From: Escherichia phage T5
Strand: one strand, 5' to 3'
Length of the DNA stretch: 64,000 bases
Sequence record: NC_005859.1
The number at the start of each line of letters is the position of its first letter. The stretch's first letter is position 1. The position numbers and the translations under genes were made by a program. The notes under the pieces are model-generated. The model did not search any database and was not told the DNA's origin. It saw only the letters and a list, made by a program, of their open reading frames with translations. This document shows positions 1-63,191 of this stretch, piece after piece.

Positions 1-5
1 CAATA

Positions 6-344
6 ATGATTGTTGGGGTATCTTCATGGTTCTCTGTCAGGAATGAGATGGAGAACGTTCAGATTATGACCGGGTTAGGTCTTATAGACCGTTTTCTTGG
101 TACAACGGATTTTACTGGTGGTGGGCTATCTAGGGGTAATTCTGTTCTTCGCTTCGTTGAAAAGCATAAGCTCAAACATTGGTGTGTGCTGGATGATGCT
201 GGTGCTATGATGTATCAGTATCCAACGGTTATAGTCAATGGTAGAACTGGAATAAATCTTCAAGATTTAAGAGCTGTTAGCTATATGTTAGAATTTAGTC
301 CAGATCTTGAAATGTGTAAAGCCCTACAACAATTTAAGGTGTAA
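6..344 (+). CDS. hypothetical protein (may be 5'-truncated by window edge)
   Basis: 112-aa ORF; tightly packed with downstream gene (stop 344, next ATG 347). Confidence 0.45.
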   Translation: MIVGVSSWFSVRNEMENVQIMTGLGLIDRFLGTTDFTGGGLSRGNSVLRFVEKHKLKHWCVLDDAGAMMYQYPTVIVNGRTGINLQDLRAVSYMLEFSPDLEMCKALQQFKV

Positions 345-346
345 AT

Positions 347-775
347 ATGTTTAATAATGTATTCTCTAAAGAAGCTAATCCAATATTGGTTAATTTTTGG
401 CGTACTCTTCCAGCCAACCTGTACAATGAGGCTATTAATGCTCTAAAAATATGGTGTGAGAATAATGAAATCTCCTTTGCTTTTAAAGGCGAGATTGAAG
501 AAGCTCCCTGTATTGGTTTAATTGTGCAGGTAGAGGATGGTCTTGAAGAGATTGTCGGCTGGAAAGAGTTAGATGAAATGGGCTTGGTTTTTGCATTAAA
601 CTATAAGCTGTTTATGCCTAATAAACACCGTATTGTTGTTAACTATAAAACCAGTGAATCTCCTGGCTTTCAAGTTAATGAACATTACGGTTGGTCTTAC
701 TCACCGGAAGAAGTAAATGATGGTATCCAAAAACTTCGTCGTTTTGGTTATCAAATTCCGGGTTTAACTGCCTAA
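347..775 (+). CDS. hypothetical protein, tandem paralog A
   Basis: 142-aa ORF; shares PCIG...W.EL..MGL..ALN..LF.P...RFGY.IPGL pattern with next ORF. Confidence 0.6.
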   Translation: MFNNVFSKEANPILVNFWRTLPANLYNEAINALKIWCENNEISFAFKGEIEEAPCIGLIVQVEDGLEEIVGWKELDEMGLVFALNYKLFMPNKHRIVVNYKTSESPGFQVNEHYGWSYSPEEVNDGIQKLRRFGYQIPGLTA

Positions 776-784
776 GGAGGCACA

Positions 785-1177
785 ATGGAACAAATATATT
801 GGCGTCAGATTGATCCTAGTTTGGTGAAGTGTGCAGAGAAGCTGCTACAACGTTGGTTGGGGGTAAGACAAGCCTCCTTCACTTTTCCGGAGCAGCAAAT
901 AGACGATCCCTGTATTGGTGTTTTCCTATCAGGCTACGCTGGGGAATGGGAATTGGATTGGAATGAATTGTCTGCTATGGGTTTAATTGTTGCACTAAAT
1001 TTCTCTTTGTTCCATCCACGTGGTTTGGCTATATGTCGTGTGCCTGATGATGGTTGTTCGCCCCATCTTTTACGGGTGGAAGATGATATTTGGGAGTACA
1101 CTCCAGATACTCTCAAAGAAGCTAAAGAACAGTTAAACCGTGTTGGGATCTATGTTCCAGGCCTGAATGATGAATGA
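785..1177 (+). CDS. hypothetical protein, tandem paralog B
   Basis: 130-aa ORF; RBS aaggagg upstream; clear similarity to 347..775 product. Confidence 0.6.
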   Translation: MEQIYWRQIDPSLVKCAEKLLQRWLGVRQASFTFPEQQIDDPCIGVFLSGYAGEWELDWNELSAMGLIVALNFSLFHPRGLAICRVPDDGCSPHLLRVEDDIWEYTPDTLKEAKEQLNRVGIYVPGLNDE

Positions 1178-1200
1178 TTTTTATTAGCTGAACTCTGATT

Positions 1201-1227
1201 ACCGAGTCATTTTGGCTCGGTTTTCTC
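1201..1227 (+). terminator. rho-independent terminator
   Basis: stem accgagtc/ggctcggt with following T-run, just after stop of 785..1177. Confidence 0.55.
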
Positions 1228-1268
1228 TGTACTCAAAGACACTGATAGCACCATCCGGAAAATTTTAC

Positions 1269-1297
1269 TTGCAGGATGCCCAAAATCTTGATATAAT
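1269..1297 (+). promoter_or_regulatory. sigma70-type early promoter
   Basis: -35 TTGCAG, 17-bp spacer, extended -10 TGaTATAAT, followed by T5-early-like ATTTATATTGAATTGAGAGA tract. Confidence 0.5.
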
Positions 1298-1794
1298 ATT
1301 TATATTGAATTGAGAGACATTAGTAAAAATTGATTTTGCTAATTTTTCTTGTTTACAATCCGCGATACGGAACAGTTAGGCTGCCCCATTAAGGGTTGTT
1401 TTAACTGTTACTAGTGTTTATATTGCATTAGTTAATATTCAATTAAGTGATCTGTGTACCCTGAATTCGGAAAGGTAAATCCAAACCGTGCATATTTAGC
1501 TCGTTATATAGGCAGAGTTTTATATGGGGGTGCGAACGAAAAGAGCAGCGAATGGCGGCACGTACAGTAGTCACCTACCAATAGGATAGTGAGGACAAAT
1601 AGAATCGGCTTAGCGGCCAATGACCTAGGTTCTATTCTGTATATGAGCGAAGAGAGCACAGCACTGAGATATGATAACTTATTCATATTGTTTGATGATA
1701 ATTGATGTTTACGTAAATAGTAGTAATAGTTGTTCTATTCTTTCTGAATAGTCCTAAAGAAAAGATTTCGATTAACCAACACAGGAGTATTGTT

Positions 1795-4581
1795 GTGTTT
1801 TCTATCCTCCAAGGTCACGCCGGATTTTCTCGTGATTTAGCAACAGGTATTTGGCGAGAAATCAAAGCGGAAGATTATACCTTTGCCAAGCGATTCTCGA
1901 AAGAGCATCCAGAAGGTAAACCAGCTTCTATGCCCTTCAAATTTGATGTAATAGAAGAGCACGACCCACAAAGCCTTGCCGAAATGTTACCCCTCATGAG
2001 ACGTTTAACGTCTGACCCTCATATCGTTGCGGTGCGAGGTCGATGTCTCGCACCTAAAAATAATGTGCGACGTAAGAAAGGTAACTTTAATGTATCTAAT
2101 CCTAGTAATATTATTGCTATGGACGTGGATGGTATCCTAGATACCGGTGGGTATGACAAATTTAATCTTGTTGGTATGGCCCGCCACATTATTAAGATGT
2201 TGAATAGTATTAGTGAGGATATGTTTCCTCTTGATGCAGGGTTTATTGCTCATGCATCGTCTTCGGCTGGGCTAAAACCAGGTATCCGAATGCACTTAAT
2301 GCTAGAATCTAACGTCAAGGTAACTCAGGGTCAGCTAAAGTTCTTATTTACATCTATCAACGATAGTAGTAAGCAAAAATTTGGTTTTGATATTGCCGAC
2401 CTAGCTTATTATTCATCTGTCCAGCTCCACTATTTTGCCGACCCCTTATTTAGCGATGGTATTGTTGATCCGTTTAAAGCGGAGAGTAAGCCACGTCTGG
2501 TGTATGTTAAAGGTTCGAAAGTAAATTTGCCCAATAATCTGGTTGACTATGAAACAACTAGAGGGGAGTTTAAGGAAGAGTTTTATTCTTTACTTGATCA
2601 AATTAAAGGCAAAAAGATTGCTTCTGATAAAGTAGAAGAAACCATCAGCGAGTTAGAAGAGGCTGATGATGGAGTGTATTTGCGTATTATCCCCAAACTA
2701 TACCATAGAGCATTAGAGGATGGTGTTGATTTTGCATGGCTAGAACGTGAGATTAAACCAGCTTTATCTGAATATATTGCAACTAAAGATAACAGTCGTA
2801 ATATTCAAGATTACTTTAATAACGGTCGTAAGCAGGCTCTCAAAGCGTTTGTTAATAATTCTAAACGTGAGATTCCATTAAATCTGAAAGGTGTTCCACT
2901 TAAGAAATTAGAAGTGGATTCTCCACCAGAAGTTCCATACCTGAAGATTAACATTGTGCCCCCAAAAGGCCATATAACATTTGTTAAGGCAAGTCTTGGT
3001 ACTGGTAAAACTACGGCAGTAACTAAATGGCTGGACGCAGGTGTTCTTCCAGGCAACTTTTTAGCAGTTACAAATACTAGAGCACTGGTATCTTCAAATG
3101 CCAAGAAATTTAGTGCAGGACAATACGATAAGTCTGTAGATATGCTCAACTTTAAACGTGGAGCTATCGATCGTATGTCCACAACTATTCACTCTTTGCA
3201 TAAGTTCAAAAGTTTTATTGGGCAAATAGACACCATTTTTATTGATGAATGTGACGCTGTAATGAATGACCTATTATTCGCCCCTGTTGTTAAACAACGT
3301 CGCGAGTGTATTCAAGTTCTACGTGACATCCTTATGACAGCTAAGACTGTAATCTTATCCGATGGTGATATTAGTGCTGAGACGATTGAAGCATATGGTT
3401 CTCTAATTGATTTTGATAAACCAGTAGCATTTTATAATCATCACCGTAAAATGCTGTCAAAAGCACACGCTTATGAGTTTCCTGATGAATCCAGTATTTG
3501 GGTTGCACTTCAGACTTCTCTAGAGATGGGTGAGAAATCTATTCTAGTATCTGATTGTGGCCCGGATGAGCTGAATGAGAAGGGTATGGCACTGCGTCGT
3601 AATACGGGTGCGTTAGTTAAGGAAATCCATTCAAACTCCACCTCAGATGTGGATATTCGACGTATTCTGGATTATACAACTAATGAGCTAATTGATCAAC
3701 AAATTGATTGCTTATTATGTAGTCCATCCGTAACGAGTGGCGTTGACTTTAACTATTTCGATAATGTGTTTGTTATTACTAGAACCAGTAATCAAGCGCC
3801 AAACATGCGTTTCCAAGCAATCAGGCGCGACCGTGGTGCCCAGAACATCTATTATTTTATTGATAAATCTACGAGTGGATTCTCTGCAGGTTCTGAGCAA
3901 TATAATATTGATGAAGGTTGGCTGGAGTTAGCACAGCAATTATACGCACGTCGTAGAGAGCTGGAATCTAGAAACTATACTAGTACCTTACGTTATTATT
4001 TGCTTGATCAGGGTGCAACTATTGATATTTTCAGCGAAAGCTGGGGAACTATTGAAGGTGCTGGTAAAGAATATACAGAAGAGCGAATCAAAGCTATTCT
4101 GCATTCAACTCCAGATTATTGTGCCCCACGTCATGCAGATGCATATGAAGCTAAACTACTTCTTGTTCGCTATTATCATCTTGAGTCTATTAAAGATGTA
4201 ACAGTTGAGCATGTCGAACAATATATCAAAGATAAACCGAATGATCGAGCTGCATTCTTCCATAAGATGCACGAGATGTTCTGGGAAGATATTAAGAAGT
4301 GTTCAAATGTGACCATTAAACCATTCATAGAGGCTCTGAAAGGTAAGAAGAAAGACTTCTTCCTTAAAACAGGTCAGAGTGCCAACCCAAAATATGCTAG
4401 AATGTATCTTGGTATGATGGGTATTGGTAAGGATATGAACACTGAAAATATTGTAGACTGGTACAGAACCTATTGTAAAATCGAGTGTATGCCAATTCCT
4501 TTCAAATTCATGACAGAGGAAGAGAGGGCTATGGCAGAAGAAGTAATGTCCGAACTTGGAGCAACTAATGAAGATGCATAA
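1795..4581 (+). CDS. large P-loop ATPase, putative replication/origin-binding helicase-like protein
   Basis: 928-aa ORF, GTG start with RBS aggag; Walker A LGTGKTT; Walker-B-like FIDECD. Confidence 0.7.
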   Translation: MFSILQGHAGFSRDLATGIWREIKAEDYTFAKRFSKEHPEGKPASMPFKFDVIEEHDPQSLAEMLPLMRRLTSDPHIVAVRGRCLAPKNNVRRKKGNFNVSNPSNIIAMDVDGILDTGGYDKFNLVGMARHIIKMLNSISEDMFPLDAGFIAHASSSAGLKPGIRMHLMLESNVKVTQGQLKFLFTSINDSSKQKFGFDIADLAYYSSVQLHYFADPLFSDGIVDPFKAESKPRLVYVKGSKVNLPNNLVDYETTRGEFKEEFYSLLDQIKGKKIASDKVEETISELEEADDGVYLRIIPKLYHRALEDGVDFAWLEREIKPALSEYIATKDNSRNIQDYFNNGRKQALKAFVNNSKREIPLNLKGVPLKKLEVDSPPEVPYLKINIVPPKGHITFVKASLGTGKTTAVTKWLDAGVLPGNFLAVTNTRALVSSNAKKFSAGQYDKSVDMLNFKRGAIDRMSTTIHSLHKFKSFIGQIDTIFIDECDAVMNDLLFAPVVKQRRECIQVLRDILMTAKTVILSDGDISAETIEAYGSLIDFDKPVAFYNHHRKMLSKAHAYEFPDESSIWVALQTSLEMGEKSILVSDCGPDELNEKGMALRRNTGALVKEIHSNSTSDVDIRRILDYTTNELIDQQIDCLLCSPSVTSGVDFNYFDNVFVITRTSNQAPNMRFQAIRRDRGAQNIYYFIDKSTSGFSAGSEQYNIDEGWLELAQQLYARRRELESRNYTSTLRYYLLDQGATIDIFSESWGTIEGAGKEYTEERIKAILHSTPDYCAPRHADAYEAKLLLVRYYHLESIKDVTVEHVEQYIKDKPNDRAAFFHKMHEMFWEDIKKCSNVTIKPFIEALKGKKKDFFLKTGQSANPKYARMYLGMMGIGKDMNTENIVDWYRTYCKIECMPIPFKFMTEEERAMAEEVMSELGATNEDA

Positions 4582-5086
4582 ACCAATGCCTCCTATGGCA
4601 TTTATCCTAGAAAAGCTTAGGTATGACGAAAGTACCGGGGACTTAATTTGGTTATCTGGCCCAAGGAAGGGAAAGGTGGCGGGCTCCAAAATGAAAACTG
4701 GAAGACAGTTAGAGTTTACGATAAATGGGGAGCGGACAGCTTACTTAGCCCATAGAATAATCTGGTTTATAAAGACAGGCGAAGATCCTGGGGATAAAAC
4801 TATCGACCACAAAGACGGTGATAGTTTAAACAACTTGTGGGATAATTTACGTAAGGCTACCTATTCCGAAAATGGAAAGAATAAGAAGTGTTCTACTAAT
4901 TCTACCGGATTCACTGGAGTTGTAAAACGAGGTAATAGATATATGGCCTACGCTTACTGCGAGGGAAAGCAGCATATTTTTGGTAGACGAGATACCCCGG
5001 AAGAAGCCCATCAGCTATACCTTAGGGGAGTTAAAGAACTGTTTGGTGAATTTAATCCCTCGGAGAGATATGACAGTGAAGAATAA
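4556..5086 (+). CDS. HNH homing endonuclease with AP2-like DNA-binding domain
   Basis: 176 aa; AHRIIW...IDHKDGDSLNN..NLR.AT..EN HNH motif; C-terminal TGFTGV..RGNRYMAY AP2-like segment; start overlaps preceding gene. Confidence 0.75.
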   Translation: MEQLMKMHKPMPPMAFILEKLRYDESTGDLIWLSGPRKGKVAGSKMKTGRQLEFTINGERTAYLAHRIIWFIKTGEDPGDKTIDHKDGDSLNNLWDNLRKATYSENGKNKKCSTNSTGFTGVVKRGNRYMAYAYCEGKQHIFGRRDTPEEAHQLYLRGVKELFGEFNPSERYDSEE

Positions 5087-5303
5087 AAAATGGGAAACAA
5101 GGAAGTTTCCAGTAAAAGAACGTAAAGTTCCTGTTTATGATACTTCGGAGAAGCTATGTAGGGTGGTACCGCACAGATTAGCTGGCATCCCTAACATATC
5201 CGAATGGTTACTTAAACAACGGAGGACTAGCGTATCCCTTCGCATAGGGTTTGAGTTAGATAAAGTATATGCTGAACTTTCTTCTTTGCTCAAAGAATCA
5301 TAA
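5070..5303 (+). CDS. hypothetical small protein
   Basis: ATG overlapping HNH stop, RBS ggagaga; longer upstream start at 4980 would overlap HNH coding. Confidence 0.3.
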   Translation: MTVKNKKWETRKFPVKERKVPVYDTSEKLCRVVPHRLAGIPNISEWLLKQRRTSVSLRIGFELDKVYAELSSLLKES

Positions 5304-5312
5304 AAAATTTAT

Positions 5313-5341
5313 TTGCTTTCAGGAAAATTTTTCTGTATAAT
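5313..5341 (+). promoter_or_regulatory. T5 early promoter, sequence matches PN25
   Basis: -35 TTGCTT 5313-5318, 17-bp spacer, -10 TATAAT 5336-5341, AT-rich upstream and ATAAATTTGAGAGAGGAG downstream; identical to my memory of PN25. Confidence 0.85.
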
Positions 5342-5371
5342 AGATTCATAAATTTGAGAGAGGAGTTAAAT

Positions 5372-6076
5372 ATGGCTGGTTCTCGCAGAAAGAAACATAT
5401 CCATGAAATCCCGGATGAAGTCTTTAAAAAAGTTATAGAGCATCTGGAAAACGGTGGTACTAAGAAAGCAGCATGTGAAATGCTCGGCGTATCATCCAAT
5501 CCAACTATGGAAAGGATGATTGAAGAGTGGCAAGACCGCCAGATTCAAGTTGCCGAAATGAAGAAAAAGAAACGTGGTACACTCATTGAAGGTATTGAGT
5601 TGGCCAACGTTATTGAACAGTATCTATCTGGCGATTCTTTCGAAGAGATTGCCGATCGTAATTACCGCTCTGTAGCAATGGTTAAATCTGTTCTGGAACG
5701 CTATGGTGCTCTGCTTCGTTTGAACGATATTGTAGATCCATTGAATCCACCAATTATTCCTGATGATGCTGTAGCAGAAGAATTTGAGGTAGGTGAGCTT
5801 GTTTGGGTTCCTGGATACCAGTGTATTGGTGAAATCAAAAAAGCAATGGATAACCCTGTTGGTTGTTACCGTGTTTGGCTTCTATCAGAAGGCAAACAAC
5901 AGAACGTTCATTATATGAATTATGAGCTGGCCTCTGTTAAACACCTGGAAAAGTTAGGGGTTGATGTAAAATCTCTGGGGTATAAATGGACTCGGGAAGA
6001 AGTCATTACGTTGATTAACGAAGCTGTTAAGGCCGCCTTGAAACTTGATAAAGAAAAAGGAAAACGCCGTGAGTAG
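5372..6076 (+). CDS. hypothetical protein with probable N-terminal helix-turn-helix
   Basis: ATG at 5372 sits 6 nt after RBS gagaggag and downstream of the PN25 start site; the track start 5354 lies at the transcription start. Confidence 0.7.
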   Translation: MAGSRRKKHIHEIPDEVFKKVIEHLENGGTKKAACEMLGVSSNPTMERMIEEWQDRQIQVAEMKKKKRGTLIEGIELANVIEQYLSGDSFEEIADRNYRSVAMVKSVLERYGALLRLNDIVDPLNPPIIPDDAVAEEFEVGELVWVPGYQCIGEIKKAMDNPVGCYRVWLLSEGKQQNVHYMNYELASVKHLEKLGVDVKSLGYKWTREEVITLINEAVKAALKLDKEKGKRRE

Positions 6077-6320
6077 ACTAACTGATTTACTTAAAGATGG
6101 GGAAGTAAAAACACTATATCGTAGAAGCTGGGATAACGATAATAACGGCTTAGTGTTACTAACTTTAGATGCTGACTCGGATGTAGCTACTCAGCATACC
6201 TGGGTAGCCGGTAATTATCCATATAGCGAGGTTGTTTCATTAACAGTATGCGAAGCTATTGCAGACGATTGGGAGGTTGCCAGCATTGAGGGTATGCTCG
6301 CTGTTGGCCTGGTGGAGTAA
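6045..6320 (+). CDS. hypothetical protein
   Basis: 91-aa ORF overlapping upstream gene; true start may be GTG near 6070. Confidence 0.45.
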   Translation: MIKKKENAVSRLTDLLKDGEVKTLYRRSWDNDNNGLVLLTLDADSDVATQHTWVAGNYPYSEVVSLTVCEAIADDWEVASIEGMLAVGLVE

Positions 6321-6337
6321 CTACTTAAAAATTTCAG

Positions 6338-6366
6338 TTGCTTAATCCTACAATTCTTGATATAAT
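6338..6366 (+). promoter_or_regulatory. sigma70-type early promoter
   Basis: -35 TTGCTT, 17-bp spacer, -10 TATAAT. Confidence 0.6.
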
Positions 6367-6423
6367 ATTCTCATAGTTTGAAAGAACTATTCTGTTTTAT
6401 TCTTAATTAAGGAAATATAAAAT

Positions 6424-6834
6424 ATGACTACTCCAACTCAGTGGACTGATGAACTGTTCGAAAAAATGTCTTCCGAATACGTTGCTCGTATGGAGCAATT
6501 CCCAGAGGATGAACGTCCGGGTGTTAGCATGGAAATTGTTAGCGAAATTGCCCAGGAAAATGGTGTAACTCCGAACGGTTTTCGTATGAAGCTGACTAAA
6601 GCAGGTTTGTATATTAAGAAAGCTGCTGGTTCTACTTCTAAATCTAGCGCATCTACTGGAGAAAAAGCTTCCGGTGGTTCTCGTACCTCCAAAGCTCAAG
6701 CCCACGCCGACCTTCGCGCAGCATTCTCTGATGCTGGCTTAGCACCAGATTTTCTGGATGATGCAATTATCGACAAACTGACCGGTAAAGCGGCTGCTCA
6801 TCTGGCAGAAGCAATCCGAGCTATCACTAAGTAA
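6424..6834 (+). CDS. hypothetical protein, probably abundant
   Basis: 136-aa ORF with E. coli-preferred codons (ctg, cgt, ggt); promoter plus RBS aaggaaa upstream. Confidence 0.65.
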   Translation: MTTPTQWTDELFEKMSSEYVARMEQFPEDERPGVSMEIVSEIAQENGVTPNGFRMKLTKAGLYIKKAAGSTSKSSASTGEKASGGSRTSKAQAHADLRAAFSDAGLAPDFLDDAIIDKLTGKAAAHLAEAIRAITK

Positions 6835-6870
6835 TTTTAGATAAATCCACCAACAAAAGGAACTATAGCT

Positions 6871-7167
6871 ATGACTAAAGCTGAAATTATTGCACAGTGC
6901 GAAAAATTTGGTGAGTTTTATCTTCATTACGAGAAACTTCGTCAGAAAGGAACCACGTACCTTCAGGGTACAATGGAATTTGATCCGGCCCAAGATAAAT
7001 ATCTGGCTGAGCGTATTAAACGCGAACGTATTCGTAAAGCGAAAGATGATGAAATCCTTGTCTTCTCTCGTACTAATGATAGCTTCCGTTTTATTCCTGT
7101 CGAGAAAGTCCGTCGTGTGACTAGCCTCCAATCAGAGTTAGATCGTGCTTCTCCAGTAGGCCGATAA
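6871..7167 (+). CDS. hypothetical protein
   Basis: 98-aa ORF, RBS aaaggaa. Confidence 0.55.
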   Translation: MTKAEIIAQCEKFGEFYLHYEKLRQKGTTYLQGTMEFDPAQDKYLAERIKRERIRKAKDDEILVFSRTNDSFRFIPVEKVRRVTSLQSELDRASPVGR

Positions 7168-7177
7168 GAAAACAATT

Positions 7178-7199
7178 AGCCCCTATATGGGGCTTTTTG
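7178..7199 (+). terminator. rho-independent terminator
   Basis: agcccc-tatat-ggggct hairpin followed by TTTTT. Confidence 0.7.
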
Positions 7200-7217
7200 T
7201 GTATTTGGGATATGTAA

Positions 7218-7526
7218 ATGAGCGAACAGGTAAATCAAAACTATGAAGGACACGTTGATGACCAGTCCATCATACTTTGGGAGAAGGAGGGGGAACAAGT
7301 AAGATTAACAGTATCTGAATTTCGTGGGAATCTATACATGGGTATTCGTTACTGGCTTCTTGATATTAATGATGAATGGTTTCCAACGAAATCTGGCTTC
7401 TCTTTTCCTTACACCCTAGAAACAACATCACAGCTTTTCTATGCGTTTACACAGATTCTTAGCGAATCTGAGGTTTTACATGAAGTACAGAAACGAGCTG
7501 AAGAACTCAAAGCCAAGAATGCCTAG
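7218..7526 (+). CDS. hypothetical protein
   Basis: 102-aa ORF. Confidence 0.55.
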   Translation: MSEQVNQNYEGHVDDQSIILWEKEGEQVRLTVSEFRGNLYMGIRYWLLDINDEWFPTKSGFSFPYTLETTSQLFYAFTQILSESEVLHEVQKRAEELKAKNA

Positions 7527-7540
7527 TTCTTGGCTTTTTC
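7511..7540 (+). terminator. rho-independent terminator
   Basis: gccaagaa-tgcctag-ttcttggc hairpin overlapping stop codon, then TTTTT. Confidence 0.65.
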
Positions 7541-7553
7541 TTTATAAATGTAT

Positions 7554-7582
7554 TTGCTTTCAACTCAGTTTTGTTATATAAT
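7554..7582 (+). promoter_or_regulatory. sigma70-type early promoter
   Basis: -35 TTGCTT, 17-bp spacer, -10 TATAAT, ATTTATATAAATT downstream. Confidence 0.6.
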
Positions 7583-7613
7583 ATTTATATAAATTAATGA
7601 GAGATATAAATAA

Positions 7614-8585
7614 ATGACTAATGTAAAAGAATTTATTAAACGCTGTCAAGAAGCATATTATCAAGGCATGTCTTTAATCTCTGATGAAGAATATGATCGC
7701 CTGGTAAAACGCTTCCCGTTAGAGGAAGAGATCGGGCCTAAGGGTGATATTCCACATCTATATCGTATGTATTCTTTACAGAAAGTTTACTATAACCGTG
7801 GTGATAAACCACCATTCAATCCTTTAGGTCAGGTGGAAACCGATAAGTTAGATGGTTGTGCAATTTCTCTGCTATATATTAACGGCGAATTTGTTCAAGC
7901 ATTAACCCGCGGTAATGGTATTCTGGGGAATGATGTCACAAGCAACGTAAGATTGCTGAACATTCCTAAAAAGATTTCCCAAAAAGTACCTACTCAAATC
8001 ACTGGTGAAGTTCTAATTACAAAAGAAGTAGAAAATAAACGTAACTTTGCCTCTGGTGCTATTAACCTCAAAGATAGCGATGATTTCGTACAACGTATCG
8101 GGGAAGGTGGTTTAATCTTCGTTGCATACGGTATCCAGTGTTCTGCTGAATCTGTAGGTATTACAGAAGCATATTTAAAAGATATGCTTTGGCTAGAGAA
8201 TGAGAACTTCTTAACAGTTGTTAATGTGCGTTCCTTCTTTAAATGGATTCCGACGGACGGTAAAGTTGTTCGTATTAATGACAACAACAAATTCTTCCGT
8301 GAAGGCTGGACTAATAAATTCCCTCGTGGAGCATTCGCTATTAAAGAGGATGAAGAAGGCGAGATTACAACTCTTACTAAAGTTGAATGGCAGGTAGGGG
8401 CTTCGGGTAAAGTAACTCCAGTTGGTTATTTTGAACCGGTAATTATTGATGATGCTACAATTGTTAAAGCAACTCTTAATAACGTTGATTATATTAACTC
8501 TCTCGATCTAGAGATCGGTTGCCAGATTCGAGTGATTCGTGCTGGTGGTGTAATCCCGTGCATAGTAGAGCGAGTATACGATTAA
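7614..8585 (+). CDS. NAD-dependent DNA ligase, N-terminal part (adenylation and OB domains)
   Basis: 323 aa; LigA-like N-terminus and KLDG adenylation-lysine motif. Confidence 0.8.
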   Translation: MTNVKEFIKRCQEAYYQGMSLISDEEYDRLVKRFPLEEEIGPKGDIPHLYRMYSLQKVYYNRGDKPPFNPLGQVETDKLDGCAISLLYINGEFVQALTRGNGILGNDVTSNVRLLNIPKKISQKVPTQITGEVLITKEVENKRNFASGAINLKDSDDFVQRIGEGGLIFVAYGIQCSAESVGITEAYLKDMLWLENENFLTVVNVRSFFKWIPTDGKVVRINDNNKFFREGWTNKFPRGAFAIKEDEEGEITTLTKVEWQVGASGKVTPVGYFEPVIIDDATIVKATLNNVDYINSLDLEIGCQIRVIRAGGVIPCIVERVYD

Positions 8586-8728
8586 TACATAACCCTTTGC
8601 TACCCATCTACCATATCGGAATTATAAAGTGGTTATTGACATTTTCGCCGCTTAGGTATATACTATTATCATTCAGTTGAGGGATAGAAAGTTATGGCGA
8701 GGGTAAGCAAAGTTAGTTAAAATTGTAG

Positions 8729-8757
8729 TTGCTAAATGCTTAAATACTTGCTATAAT
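8729..8757 (+). promoter_or_regulatory. sigma70-type promoter between ligase halves
   Basis: -35 TTGCTA, 17-bp spacer, extended -10 TGcTATAAT. Confidence 0.55.
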
Positions 8758-8787
8758 ATTTATATAAATTGATAAGGAAGAAATTTG

Positions 8788-9567
8788 ATGAAAATCGAAA
8801 TTCCAACACAATGTCCCTCTTGTGGTTCTAAGCTAGATCTTGTCAACGGACAATTATTCTGTCGTAATAAGTCCAACTGTCCAGCGCAATCAAGTAAGTT
8901 AATTGAGAACTTCTGTACAAAAATGAAGTTAAAGGGCTTTGGCCCGAAAACTATTGAGAAGCTGGAGCTGACGAAGATTTCAGAACTATTTTACCTAACC
9001 GAAGAAGATTTGGTTAGAGCCGTGGGTAGCAAGGTTGCCGCTAAGTTAATTAGCGAATTAAATACTAAAGTTCGCGGAGACATTGACTTTGGTTCAGTTC
9101 TCGGTTCTTTAGGAATCCCTCTAATTGGAGAGGTTGCAGCAAAGAAATTATCCCAAAATTGCACTAGCTTTCAAGATGTGAAGGCTGACGGCAAGGCTGG
9201 AGAAAACTATAAAGCCTGGCTAAATTCCCCACAAGGCAAGGATGTAATCGAATTACCGTGGAAATTCTCAAAGGGTATTAAGGGTGCTAAAGCTGAGGTC
9301 ATCATCACTGATGGTCTAGTAGCCCAGCCAAATGGAATCACGGTGTGTATTACCGGATCTTTGCAAGATTTTGCAAATCGAACGGATGCAACAAACTATT
9401 TAGAAGGTCTAGGATATACGGTTAAGAAATCCGTTACCAAAGACGTCAAATACCTAATCTGTGAGGATGAATCGAAGCGTTCTTCCTCATCTTATAAGAA
9501 AGCCGAAACGAATGGGATAGAAATCCTGTCGATTAAAGAACTATTGGAGAAAAATAATAATGTCTAA
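8788..9567 (+). CDS. NAD-dependent DNA ligase, C-terminal part (Zn finger, HhH, BRCT-like)
   Basis: Cys4 motif CPSCGS...CRNKSNCPAQ typical of LigA zinc finger; separate ORF about 200 bp after the N-terminal part. Confidence 0.75.
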   Translation: MKIEIPTQCPSCGSKLDLVNGQLFCRNKSNCPAQSSKLIENFCTKMKLKGFGPKTIEKLELTKISELFYLTEEDLVRAVGSKVAAKLISELNTKVRGDIDFGSVLGSLGIPLIGEVAAKKLSQNCTSFQDVKADGKAGENYKAWLNSPQGKDVIELPWKFSKGIKGAKAEVIITDGLVAQPNGITVCITGSLQDFANRTDATNYLEGLGYTVKKSVTKDVKYLICEDESKRSSSSYKKAETNGIEILSIKELLEKNNNV

Positions 9568-10327
9568 ACTGAACTGGAACGTAGAAGGTGTAACCGAGTC
9601 TCTGAAAGCAAAAGCCACTGCTCTGGGTGTTGATGTAATCTCTCAAGAACAAGTAGCTGCTATCGCTGCTGAACTGGCTGCTGAAACTGGCAAAGACGTT
9701 ACCGCTCGCTCTGTTGGCTCTAAGCTGCGTAAAGAAGGTTTCGAAGTACAGAAAGCTAACGAAGTACAGAAATCCCCGTGGACTCCTGAGCAGGAAGCTG
9801 AACTGGTTGATTTCCTGAACGCTCATGCTGGTCAGTATACTTATGCTGAAATCGCTGCTGCTGTAGCTGGTGGTCAATTTGGTGCTAAGCAGGTACAGGG
9901 TAAGATCCTGAGTCTGGAAATGACAGCATCTGTTAAGCCGACCGAAAAAGCTGCCGCTGTTCGTTCCTTCACTCCGGATGAAGAAACTGACTTTGTTAAT
10001 CAGGTTGTTGCTGGTGCTACTATTGAAGCTATCGCTGCTCACTTCGGTCGCAATATTAAGCAGATCCGTGGTAAAGCTCTGAGTCTGCTTCGTGAAGGTC
10101 GTATCGCGGCTATGCCGGTACAGGAAACTTCAAGTGCTAAAACTCGTGAAGATCTGCTAGAAGGTCTGGATCTGGTTAACATGACCGTTGCTGAGATCGC
10201 TGAGAAAACTGGTAAGTCTGAGCGTGGTGTTAAATCTATGCTGTCTCGTCGTGGTCTGGTTGCTAAGGACTATGATGGTGCCGCTAAGCGTGCTAAACTG
10301 GATGCAAAAGCTGCGGCTGCTGAATAA
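9560..10327 (+). CDS. hypothetical abundant protein with internal repeated HTH-like modules
   Basis: 255 aa; strongly optimised codon usage; repeated ~45-aa units (TPEQEAELVDF / TPDEETDFVNQ / MTVAEIAEKTGKSERGVKSML). Confidence 0.7.
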   Translation: MSKLNWNVEGVTESLKAKATALGVDVISQEQVAAIAAELAAETGKDVTARSVGSKLRKEGFEVQKANEVQKSPWTPEQEAELVDFLNAHAGQYTYAEIAAAVAGGQFGAKQVQGKILSLEMTASVKPTEKAAAVRSFTPDEETDFVNQVVAGATIEAIAAHFGRNIKQIRGKALSLLREGRIAAMPVQETSSAKTREDLLEGLDLVNMTVAEIAEKTGKSERGVKSMLSRRGLVAKDYDGAAKRAKLDAKAAAAE

Positions 10328-10358
10328 TCTGGTAAATTAAACCTAAGGGGAGGGGGCT

Positions 10359-11867
10359 ATGCTCCTTCCCCTTTTTGCATTTAGAAGGCACGAAAGCGTG
10401 CAAAGGAGAATGACCTTGTTTAACGTGCAAGCTGTAGTGTTGAAGATGCTTCTAGCTTCCGAACAGAAGCAAATAGCATTGGAAACATTCTCAAAACTGC
10501 ATAAAGATCATTTTAATGACGCTTTCTCCTCAATTTACCAAGCCGTCCAGAATTATTATAAAAAATATAACACAATGCCGTCCATTGACGCACTGATGCT
10601 TGAGGCTAATAGGAACGCCCGCCTTTCTCAAGCTCTAGTCGTTTTAGCTAACACTCAAATTCCAGAAGTTAGCATGGAACAGGCACTTGAAGTCCTAGAG
10701 GCCGAGTATACACAGGATTTATTCCTGAAGCTTCTAGAAACAGACGTGCTTCAAGATTTAACAATGCTGGATCAGGGAGAAATTCTTAACCGAGTTGCCT
10801 CCCTTCACTTAAAATTAGAAGAGAAAGTAACGAATACTGGAAAAGTATTCAACGCAGATAACATGCGTATTTTCCAGAGAGAAGAAGATACCAAACTGAA
10901 CTTAATCGCTCTTGGTATTTGTAATGAGTTCGACGCTCAAATTGGTTTAGCTCGCACAGAAACGTTACTGCTTGGTGGTTGGCGTGGTACTGGTAAATCC
11001 ATTATCTGTTCAAACATACAGGTTGGAGATATTGCTCCATACTTCTCAATTGAGATGAAAGAACATGAAGTATTTAGACGTAATCTAGCCATGTTAGCTG
11101 GTGTATCAGCACTAGCAATGCGAAATAATACTCTAGAAGGTGCAGCTCTGTTGAGATTAGCCAGAACTAGAGCTAGAATGTTTAACGGTGGTGAAGAGCT
11201 TTTCGATAACTTCGTTAAACAATACACAATGGCTAAGATGAGTGATTTCTACGATATGGAAAGTAAGCTAATAGAAGGATATGAGCTACATACTCCTATG
11301 ATTATTGTTTATGATCCTGAGCTGTCTATTACAACAGTTGACGTAGAATTAAATAAATTAGTTGCTAGATATGGGGATAAAGTTACAGTAGCTTTACTTG
11401 ACTATATTAACCAAACCCGACTTCCAGATTCTAAAACCATTGATATGTATGACTGGAAAGAACAGATGGTTGTTAGCTCGTCTTTCAAATCCATCTGCCA
11501 GAAACATAACGTGGCTGGTGTAGCTCCTTACCAGATTGATCAAGATGGTAGAACACGTATGTCAAAAGGGATTCTTGATTCCGCAGACATGGCTGCTAAT
11601 CTTAATGCTGCAAAAGCTGATAATGGTCAAGGTGCTATTATGTTTGACTTCGTTAAGACCCGTTCTTCTGATAGCGTGAAGTTTATGCCTAAAATGAACT
11701 GGGAAACCCTGCGGATGGATAACACTACCAACCTAGCAATGGAAGATATATCTCAAATGGAAGCTGAGTTCGTTATCCCTATTGAGAAGGATAAGCCGGC
11801 TCAATCTAAACGTGCTAAGAAAGACAAAGCTGAAAATTCAACAGGTGAACAGGCCAGCGATATATGA
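10359..11867 (+). CDS. DnaB-like replicative helicase
   Basis: Walker A GGWRGTGKS; RecA-like C-terminal half; exact start uncertain (10359 has ggagg RBS, alternatives 10410/10416). Confidence 0.75.
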   Translation: MLLPLFAFRRHESVQRRMTLFNVQAVVLKMLLASEQKQIALETFSKLHKDHFNDAFSSIYQAVQNYYKKYNTMPSIDALMLEANRNARLSQALVVLANTQIPEVSMEQALEVLEAEYTQDLFLKLLETDVLQDLTMLDQGEILNRVASLHLKLEEKVTNTGKVFNADNMRIFQREEDTKLNLIALGICNEFDAQIGLARTETLLLGGWRGTGKSIICSNIQVGDIAPYFSIEMKEHEVFRRNLAMLAGVSALAMRNNTLEGAALLRLARTRARMFNGGEELFDNFVKQYTMAKMSDFYDMESKLIEGYELHTPMIIVYDPELSITTVDVELNKLVARYGDKVTVALLDYINQTRLPDSKTIDMYDWKEQMVVSSSFKSICQKHNVAGVAPYQIDQDGRTRMSKGILDSADMAANLNAAKADNGQGAIMFDFVKTRSSDSVKFMPKMNWETLRMDNTTNLAMEDISQMEAEFVIPIEKDKPAQSKRAKKDKAENSTGEQASDI

Positions 11868-12397
11868 TAACACAGGAAAGGCTAAAAGAGTTATTTGATT
11901 ACTCCCCAGGAACTGGGGAGTTTACTAGAAAAGTATCTAGAGGTAATCAGAAAGCTGGTAGTATAGTAACCAGAAAAGACTCTAACGGTTATATAATTAT
12001 TGGTATAGATGGCAAGGATTACAAAGCCCATCGGATGGCTTTTCTATTTATGGAAAATACATTACCGGAAAAAGTAGACCATGTAAATAGAATACCCTTT
12101 GATAATAGGTGGTGTAATCTAAGAGATGCCACAGCCCAGGAAAATAGTAGAAATAAAACCGCATGTAGTAAGTCTGGATACTTGGGAGTTGCTTGGGATA
12201 TCGAAAAACAAAGATGGAGAGTTCAGGTAAGAGACTCTAATAGCACTCTTAAAAATGGTGGCAGATTTAAGTATGAGGAGCTAGAGCTAGCTGTAAATTC
12301 AGCAAATATACTAAGGACTAAGTTACATGGAGAACGTGCTGTTATAGAAATTTTTGATACATCTAATTATCCTTCACTGGAGGAGTTAAATTCATGA
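11864..12397 (+). CDS. HNH homing endonuclease with AP2-like domain
   Basis: 177 aa; AHRMAF...VDHVNRIPFDNRWCNLR..T..EN HNH motif; YLGVAWD...RWRVQV AP2-like; ATGA overlaps with both neighbours. Confidence 0.75.
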   Translation: MITQERLKELFDYSPGTGEFTRKVSRGNQKAGSIVTRKDSNGYIIIGIDGKDYKAHRMAFLFMENTLPEKVDHVNRIPFDNRWCNLRDATAQENSRNKTACSKSGYLGVAWDIEKQRWRVQVRDSNSTLKNGGRFKYEELELAVNSANILRTKLHGERAVIEIFDTSNYPSLEELNS

Positions 12398-17753: not shown

Positions 17754-17765
17754 ATGATGTATAAT
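17737..17765 (+). promoter_or_regulatory. sigma70-type early promoter
   Basis: -35 TTGGCA, 17-bp spacer, -10 TATAAT, then ATATACATAAATTTGAGAGAG. Confidence 0.55.
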
Positions 17766-17836
17766 ATATACATAAATTTGAGAGAGAAAGTTTCGGATTG
17801 ATAAGAAAGTCCGAAGCAGAAAAATAAAAATTTTAG

Positions 17837-17866
17837 TTGCTAAATTCTCTCGAAATCTAGTATAAT
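17837..17866 (+). promoter_or_regulatory. sigma70-type early promoter (second of a tandem pair)
   Basis: -35 TTGCTA, ~18-bp spacer, -10 TATAAT, then ATATACATAAATTCGAGGAG; near-duplicate of the promoter 100 bp upstream. Confidence 0.55.
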
Positions 17867-28568: not shown

Positions 28569-28729
28569 GCTGCTTTTAATACTCCCTCTAAGAGAGAGAA
28601 ATCAGTAAGATCTACTGGTTTGGATGTAGATGGGTAAACACTATCATCTACGTCCATAAATTGCATAAGTAAACCATAAGGTACGTTCTCGTCTACCACT
28701 AAATCAATAACTCTATTTTCTGTACTCAT
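28544..28729 (-). CDS. collar protein-like, N-terminal fragment
   Basis: 61-aa ORF with ATG start; with the next ORF would make ~140 aa if fused. Confidence 0.4.
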
Positions 28730-54719: not shown

Positions 54720-55115
54720 TTAAAGGCCATACGCTAGCGCATCAGCGATAAAACTAACATCCTCGCCCGATACGCTGGAACGAATGCCAGCGCATGTATA
54801 CACCTTTGCGCTCATTAGCTGATCATCAAGGCAAGCGGGGCAAGGTGCGACTACTGCGAAAGCTAAACCGGATTTTACCGCGTCAATAATGATTGTTTCC
54901 TGTTTCATAGTGTCAACATAAACACCTTTTGCTTTAATATGGCTTGTTAGTTTGCCCTGCATATATGCAAACGTTGTAACTTGCATCGCGTCATTGAAAT
55001 CTAATAGCTCATCAATAACGTGACCGGCCTCGACGTGATAACGCTGACCATTAGAATAAACCAGAACAATAGAAGACTGAGCGCGATCGAATGGGATACG
55101 GTTAGATTTAGCCAT
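54720..55115 (-). CDS. hypothetical pre-early protein
   Basis: 131-aa ORF between dmp and A1. Confidence 0.55.
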   Translation of the reverse strand: MAKSNRIPFDRAQSSIVLVYSNGQRYHVEAGHVIDELLDFNDAMQVTTFAYMQGKLTSHIKAKGVYVDTMKQETIIIDAVKSGLAFAVVAPCPACLDDQLMSAKVYTCAGIRSSVSGEDVSFIADALAYGL

Positions 55116-57507: not shown

Positions 57508-57915
57508 TTATTCGCCTGCGGCTTGTTTTACTTCATCGGCAACGCCTAACAGTTGCGCCACGGCGTCCAGCGTTTCCAATTTTGCACTTTCCAGTGATGC
57601 CAGATCGTCAGCGTCTTTGATAATACCGGAATCGATGGCATGTTTTGCAATCACACGCACGTAGTGCGCTTTGCGGATAGAACTGCCGCCGCCAACCTTG
57701 CGAGGTTTATCGCTTTTCTGATACGCTTTCGCGCTGGTCAATTTTGAGCGAACAGACACGGGAGAAGCCGCGCCAACTGCTTTTGCAATCTCTTTTAAAC
57801 CGTCGCTATTTGCGAAATCTAAACCGTTTTCATTAATTAACTGCTGGTACATGGAAACAGCTTTCTGAGTGTTTTCTTCATTCCAAGCGAATTTTGCGGT
57901 TTTAGCGTTAGTCAT
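57508..57915 (-). CDS. A2: A2-like pre-early DNA-binding protein
   Basis: 135-aa ORF immediately after A1 in transcription order; size and position match T5 A2. Confidence 0.65.
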   Translation of the reverse strand: MTNAKTAKFAWNEENTQKAVSMYQQLINENGLDFANSDGLKEIAKAVGAASPVSVRSKLTSAKAYQKSDKPRKVGGGSSIRKAHYVRVIAKHAIDSGIIKDADDLASLESAKLETLDAVAQLLGVADEVKQAAGE

Positions 57916-63077: not shown

Positions 63078-63191
63078 CACGCCTCCAGTTAAATCCCCCT
63101 TTGTTTTAGTATCCCCATCAAAATTAAACGCGTTAGAATGCGATCTAGGACGTTTTAGGCATATATTAGAATTATTCACTGCGTAGGAATA

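Follow-up and report, generated by a model that had tools for sequence, protein, structure and literature searches.

PN25 of bacteriophage T5 at its native position upstream of D3

The closest described counterpart of the locus analysed here is the T5 promoter PN25 itself, which combines a −35 element (TTGctt), a 17-bp spacer, a −10 element (TATAAT) and a 6-bp discriminator with G at −5 (Hsu & Han 2025, PMC12464699). The same study assigns to it a canonical UP element, centred at −49 and showing about 66% homology to the UP consensus, and a UP-like AT-rich element within the spacer, centred at −19. Promoter strength is attributed to the UP element, the consensus −10, the spacer and the discriminator (PMC12464699). 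With a kon of 2.9e8 M−1 s−1 and an open-complex half-life of 180 min (Hsu & Han 2025, PMC12464699), PN25 is rate-limited in initiation at the step of escape, and the authors describe its native initial transcribed sequence (ITS) as having evolved for rapid escape (PMC12464699). Transcription from the T5N25 construct is primed with the dinucleotide ApU (bioRxiv 10.1101/042432), and the primer IM103 is described as carrying the “strong coliphage promoter PN25” (PMC4447248). Wherever the binding kinetics, the start site and the escape-limited behaviour of PN25 are referred to below, they are taken from this literature.

We compared these descriptions with a 64,000-nt stretch of Escherichia phage T5 DNA (sequence record NC_005859.1), hereafter the window. 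Our comparison indicates with very high confidence that window positions 5289–5367 are PN25, an early promoter of T5, in its native genomic place. This identification is based on sequence identity, position, conservation and resemblance to the sibling T5 early promoters, and no evidence contradicting it was met.

Identity of the element and of the window

A sequence-only reading had recognized PN25 in a 66-nt string, and had presented it as the native promoter of the gene at 5372–6076 and as support for the window being T5 or a very close relative rather than as a novelty. The string occurs once in the window, at 5302–5367 (string search); the TAA stop of the upstream ORF begins with base 5301, and the AAAT at 5368–5371 is the rest of the 5’ leader ahead of the ATG at 5372. 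The primer IM103 (PMC4447248) is identical to window 5299–5367 at 69 of 69 positions, covering −49 to +20, and the T5N25 insert (bioRxiv 10.1101/042432) is identical to 5303–5366 at 64 of 64 positions, each with one site in the window. At the level of sequence, exact identity over 66–69 nt with a published promoter cannot be chance. In addition, the regulatory feature “promoter P-N 25” of AY692264 (T5 st0), located at 54987–55061 (75 nt), corresponds to window 5293–5367 and is followed by D3; AY587007 carries at the same site the annotations “putative early promoter T5P33” and “repeat c copy 6”. The element lies directly upstream of D3 (T5p109), and the first D3 codons, ATGGCTGGTTCTCGC, are also present in extended laboratory N25 templates. 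Comparison with T5 sequence returned the match to PN25 that the sequence-only reading had anticipated, and bore out its view that this is no novelty; the sequence, the position and the mechanism are already known.

The support that the promoter had been said to lend to a T5 origin is borne out over the full length of the window. Segments 1–25000, 20001–42000 and 39001–64000 share 99.9–100% identity with both T5 records, AY692264 and AY587007, and the next-best phages reach at most 96%. The D3 gene lies at 63122 of a 121,750-bp T5 contig in IMG/VR (L030), which places the window at 57751–121750 of that contig; the window is thus the right-hand 64 kb of T5 and ends in the right terminal repeat.

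Two other accounts of the match concern the origin of the DNA. Since engineered E. coli chromosomes and one cloning vector contain PN25, it is conceivable in principle that the promoter string is a contaminant from a cloning vector or an engineered construct and not native phage DNA. This account is already refuted by the colinearity of both flanks with two independent T5 genomes (99.9% over 25–30 kb); furthermore, the flanks have no match to vector backbone, native D3 start codons follow the promoter, and hundreds of T5-like phages share the arrangement, so that contamination is next to inconceivable. It is also extremely improbable that the window derives from a close T5 relative with an orthologous but distinct promoter. 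Many Tequintavirus genomes do carry near-identical promoters (97.8–98.9% identity), and at the promoter site a single base separates the window from the two T5 records of the collection. However, over the first 30 kb the window departs from AY692264 by only 13 substitutions and 3 indels, the whole-window identities given above leave the next-best phages well behind, and the exact form of the promoter found in the window occurs in IMG/VR solely in the 121,750-bp T5 contig itself.

With PN25 assigned to T5 DNA in its native place, its value here is that of an anchor only: it fixes the window as the right-hand 64 kb of phage T5 with the early genes on the + strand. Position 5348 is an experimentally characterised landmark from which PN26, PK28a/b, D2, D3, ligA/B and D5–D15 can be placed, and through this anchor the T5 literature becomes a yardstick for other findings in the window.

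Promoter anatomy and conservation

The anatomy of the element, which lies on the + strand, agrees point by point with that reported by Hsu & Han 2025 (PMC12464699). The UP element, CTCAAAGAATCATAAAAAATTT, occupies about 5289–5310 (−59 to −38; sequence reading and PMC12464699), includes an A6T3 tract and has the A/T-rich composition in the −60 to −40 region that is expected of such elements. The upstream gene, T5p108 (5070–5303, + strand, 77 aa), runs into it, so that the 3’ end of the gene and its stop codon TAA (5301–5303) sit inside the UP region of PN25. The −35 hexamer TTGCTT (5313–5318) keeps the TTG of TTGACA and matches this consensus at 3/6 positions, yet at a spacing of 17 bp, within the usual 16–18 bp, it is still called the −35 element in the literature (PMC12464699). 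The 17-nt spacer (5319–5335) contains an A4T5 tract at 5324–5332 (−24 to −16) and leads to the −10 hexamer TATAAT (5336–5341), a 6/6 match to consensus. It is followed by the 6-nt discriminator AGATTC (5342–5347), in which the G at −5 is base 5343. The transcription start, +1 A, is taken from the literature: the ApU initiating dinucleotide places +1/+2 at the AT of 5348–5349. The initial transcribed sequence ATAAATTTGAGAGAGGAGTT covers 5348–5367 (+1 to +20), the “P-N 25” feature of AY692264 ending at 5367, and contains the Shine-Dalgarno sequence AGGAG for D3 (5361–5365), which is located 6 nt before the ATG at 5372 (sequence reading) in the window and 7 nt before it in all other sources. A direct read of 5101–6200 shows ...TCATAAAAAATTTATTTGCTTTCAGGAAAATTTTTCTGTATAATAGATTCATAAATTTGAGAGAGGAGTTAAATATGGCTGGT....

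On this anatomy, the host E. coli σ70 RNA polymerase would bind the UP element, the TTGCTT −35 and the TATAAT −10 across the 17-bp A/T-tract spacer, together with the G(−5) discriminator, and RNA would start at the A of 5348. The A/U-rich native ITS at 5348–5367 would favour quick promoter escape and would also provide the AGGAG ribosome-binding site for D3.

A generic σ70 consensus scan of 1–12000, which required at least 4/6 matches at −35, does not list PN25, because TTGCTT reaches only 3/6; this reflects the scan threshold and is no counter-evidence. Assignment to the extended −10 (TGn) class was considered and rejected: the junction reads CTG-TATAAT, with the TG at −14/−13 abutting the hexamer and CT at −15/−14. 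The leader from +1 to +83 folds no better than shuffled sequences (z −0.99), and an Rfam search over 4000–8000 gave nothing relevant to the PN25 leader.

Conservation was assessed by fetching 46 loci that encode D3 relatives and aligning their upstream regions. Among the 25 loci of Tequintavirus level that share the upstream gene, the 32 columns 5333–5364 (−15 to +17) contain no substitution, the sole changes being a (GA) expansion in two loci and a T-run indel, against a background of about 3–8 variable columns per 20 in flanking coding sequence. By comparison, 11 of the 19 columns at 5316–5334, including the upstream half of the spacer, are variable in these 25 loci. This half occurs as two sharply different haplotypes, TTGCTTTCAGGAAAATTTTT and TTGCATAGTGCAAAAAATTT, both of which retain the A/T tract. 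TTGC and TATAAT are invariant in all 31 homologous sites, and TTGC, TATAAT and ATAAATT are still present in L031 and L033, where the D3 homologues are 68% and 73% identical. In L006, L016 and L027, which have an unrelated upstream gene, homology starts exactly at the UP A-tract; the upstream edge of the promoter is therefore a mosaic boundary. This conservation pattern is what a functional promoter held in place should leave behind.

Several further variants were observed among the relatives. The spacer haplotypes can also be written TTTCAGGAAAATTTTT versus ATAGTGCAAAAAATTT, with a −35 of TTGCTT or TTGCAT; the divergence at 5316–5334 concerns loci L008, L009, L018, L020–L022, L027 and L028. 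The flanking UP element and the −15 to +17 block are fixed among the Tequintavirus genomes, and L028 has an 18-nt spacer. In some relatives (L006, L016 and L027, about 1430–1440; matches H62 and H84) the upstream gene has been swapped or a homing-endonuclease gene inserted. In L010 and L011, the (GA)n run in the ITS is longer by one GA (GAGAGAGAGGAG) at the position equivalent to 5355, and leader length thus varies among natural PN25 alleles.

Transcription unit, leader and downstream genes

D3 (T5p109; 5372–6076, + strand, 234 aa) is the first gene downstream of PN25, with its ATG at 5372 and its TAG at 6074–6076. The stop codon is overlapped by the second gene of the unit, annotated as T5p110 (6069–6320, + strand, 83 aa), and the sibling early promoter PN26 is nested within the unit at 6318–6392 on the + strand, as mapped from the “promoter P-N 26” feature of AY692264. 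The first terminator-like hairpin with a T-run downstream of PN25 on the + strand, at 7178–7194, and a second one on the + strand at 7509–7537 are the likely 3’ ends of PN25/PN26 transcripts; at the second, AY587007 has a putative rho-independent terminator at about 7512–7534. A scan of 1–12000 gave no + strand terminator-like site between 1221 and 7178. The transcript would most likely cover D3 and T5p110 and read through the nested PN26 into T5p111–T5p113; transcripts from PN25 and PN26 would end at 7178–7194 after T5p112, or pass T5p113 to 7509–7537. PN25 transcripts thus probably continue beyond D3, to an extent that we infer from these sites. The region 7155–7198 also gave a sub-threshold Rfam match to the Streptococcus sRNA SpF51 (28.7 bits versus a gathering score of 50), which overlaps the hairpin and T-run at 7178–7194, a sequence that reads as a terminator on both strands; the match is almost certainly a mere terminator resemblance.

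The window differs from the other sources by one base in the leader. At 5366–5367 (+19 to +21) it reads GGAGTTAAATATG (TT), and elsewhere the sequence is GGAGTTTAAATATG (TTT), namely in AY692264, AY587007, 28 relatives and the two laboratory N25 templates that extend past +20 (bioRxiv 10.1101/2021.05.08.443277 and 10.1101/2022.08.30.505822). The TT form shortens the SD–ATG spacing from 7 to 6 nt. A second difference from AY692264 and AY587007 lies at 28591–28592, where two inserted nucleotides, AG, in a (GA)n run split the 140-aa ORF of the minor tail protein T5p132 (minus strand) into ORFs of 61 aa and 87 aa. The T5p132 product has been identified by N-terminal sequencing, according to a note in AY692264, and the insertion is likely a sequencing error or frameshift in NC_005859.1. 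At window 11024, a 15-nt in-frame deletion relative to AY692264 lies within the putative replicative helicase gene (dnaB/T5p117).

The missing T is probably a record or sequencing error rather than biology, because the same record frameshifts T5p132 in a (GA)n run. That it is instead a genuine strain polymorphism, altering D3 translation through the shorter SD–ATG spacing, seems rather unlikely to us: the TT form is seen again in the deposited contig of 121,750 bp, and leader length does vary in relatives through the (GA)n expansion of L010 and L011, but TTT stands in the two other T5 records, the 28 relatives and both extended templates, and the T5p132 insertion points to short-repeat errors in this record. 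D3 may also be reached by read-through, since there is no + strand terminator between an upstream promoter at about 1257–1324 and PN25. A stronger version, in which D3 in infected cells is expressed mainly from about 1257–1324 via D2, the HNH gene and T5p108, with PN25 minor in vivo, is improbable. It is favoured by the stretch from 1221 to 7178 without a + strand terminator-like site, and by a study that obtained primer-extension products for 11 of 19 promoters identified in vitro, in a text that does not mention PN25 by name (Klimuk et al. 2020, PMC7472727). By contrast, the 32-nt substitution-free block at −15 to +17 and a promoter that keeps its place ahead of distant D3 homologues speak for selection acting on promoter function, PN25 open complexes are very stable in vitro (PMC12464699), and PN25 drives genes in engineered strains.

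Many phage records name D3 homologues “helicase”, “D2 protein” or “transposase”, and PHROG 3611 also bears the helicase label. A helicase assignment was rejected: Pfam gave sub-threshold HTH matches only, the AlphaFold (AF2) model has neither a P-loop nor a RecA fold, and a search of PDB folds gave no RecA-like match. The model, computed from a 10-sequence alignment (pLDDT 82.7), contains two HTH modules, a small beta-barrel (Tudor/KOW-like) and a C-terminal helix, with weak matches (E of at least 0.013) to Tudor, KOW, ribosomal eS4 and paired-domain folds; a PDB sequence search gave no match for D3. The helicase label therefore looks propagated and unsupported, and D3 is more plausibly a DNA-binding protein, as predicted from this model. 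For T5p110, full-length but sub-threshold matches to the Tad2-like domain (Thoeris anti-defence 2, PF11195) were obtained with three of four family members. T5p110 has very few relatives and its model is poor (pLDDT 65.6); a structure search with this poor model gave no Tad2 match, and the PDB sequence search gave no match either. A Tad2-like anti-Thoeris role for T5p110 is an unconfirmed lead. The position following D3 is taken in distant relatives by unrelated small ORFs, as expected of an accessory-gene slot. The probable one-base leader error, the frameshifted T5p132 and the “helicase” label of D3 are curatorial matters and not biological ones.

Sibling promoters, engineered uses and comparison with known systems

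Within the window, the pattern TTGCT-N17-19-TATAAT has 7 matches on the + strand, compared with 0.5 expected from shuffles. PN26, PK28a, PK28b and several putative promoters align with PN25, and all of these siblings, the putative ones being at 1257, 7542, 13244, 17760 and 17825, lie on the + strand as PN25 does. PN25 shares with them the upstream AAAAATTT tract, the TTGCT-type −35, TATAAT and the ATAAATT(T/G)GA-type start region; PK28b, unlike the others, has TTGACA at −35. PN25 accordingly carries both hallmarks of the T5 early-promoter class, a TTGCT-type −35 and an ATAAATT(N)GA-type start (“repeat c” of AY587007). The spacers of the siblings are unrelated in sequence. A further difference is found in the discriminator, which is of the ATATT/ATTTAT type in the siblings (TATAAT-ATT... 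or TATAAT-ATAT...) and AGATTC with G at −5 in PN25. According to Klimuk et al. 2020 (PMC7472727), every T5 early promoter identified has ATATT in its discriminator region, a motif that PN25 lacks. On this comparison PN25 is an outlier of its class at the discriminator alone, and its identity as PN25 is unaffected.

The −10/ITS block of PN25 recurs at 17760–17784 with 2 mismatches and at 17861. Downstream of D10, two tandem early-type promoters are found at 17760–17784 and 17837–17866, about 100 nt apart, both with a PN25-like −10/start region (TATAATATATACATAAATT...); AY692264 annotates the second only. The −15 to +17 block is thus present at other T5 early promoters as well (17760 and 17861; “repeat c”). 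Beyond serving as a start region optimised for escape, the substitution-free block might double as an operator or 5’-leader signal for a phage factor that shuts off or tunes early transcription or translation. One example would be gpT5.026, which binds RNAP and acts on the discriminator region; the G−5 discriminator of PN25 would then respond differently from those of its siblings. We regard this dual role as a very doubtful prospect.

Beyond the phage, PN25 is found on the chromosome in 10 of 5,426 complete E. coli genomes, which are laboratory strains. Two of the ten were inspected (L051, NZ_CP025268.1, and L052, NZ_CP114896.1), and both contain engineered cassettes. One has PN25-tetR(B) beside rexA, rexB, a LexA-family repressor gene and a TEM beta-lactamase gene, and the other has PN25 ahead of a Dam-family methyltransferase gene. 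This engineered use confirms PN25 as a portable promoter. PLSDB, a plasmid collection with few cloning vectors in which the absence of pQE-type plasmids is uninformative, yielded one partial match, pCAPs (L050, NC_025010.1), where the segment −48 to −27 of PN25 is fused at 151–193, upstream of crp, to a PN26-like spacer and −10.

Our comparison reveals that the element in the window is identical from −49 to +20 to published PN25/T5N25, a promoter used in promoter-escape studies and as a strong constitutive promoter, with the same genomic position and the same anatomy of −35, 17-bp spacer, −10, discriminator and ITS. The extended published templates and the other T5 genomes differ from it by one base, TTT versus TT at +19 to +21. 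The pCAPs promoter is exactly that of PN25 at −48 to −27, and a PN26-like half replaces its spacer and initial transcribed region. The T5 promoter/lac-operator sequence generally given for commercial expression vectors of the pQE type is identical to PN25 over the UP/−35 and the −10/discriminator parts when the two are aligned, with lac operators taking the place of the spacer and the initial transcribed region. Native PN25, unlike the pQE-type promoter, has no operator. The lambda PR promoter resembles PN25 in its near-consensus −35/17 bp/−10 arrangement, a UP element near −49, a 6-bp discriminator with G at −5 and very stable open complexes (PMC12464699). The two promoters are nevertheless unrelated in sequence, and PN25 differs from lambda PR in its additional AT-rich spacer element and its weaker −35 (TTGctt versus TTGACt).
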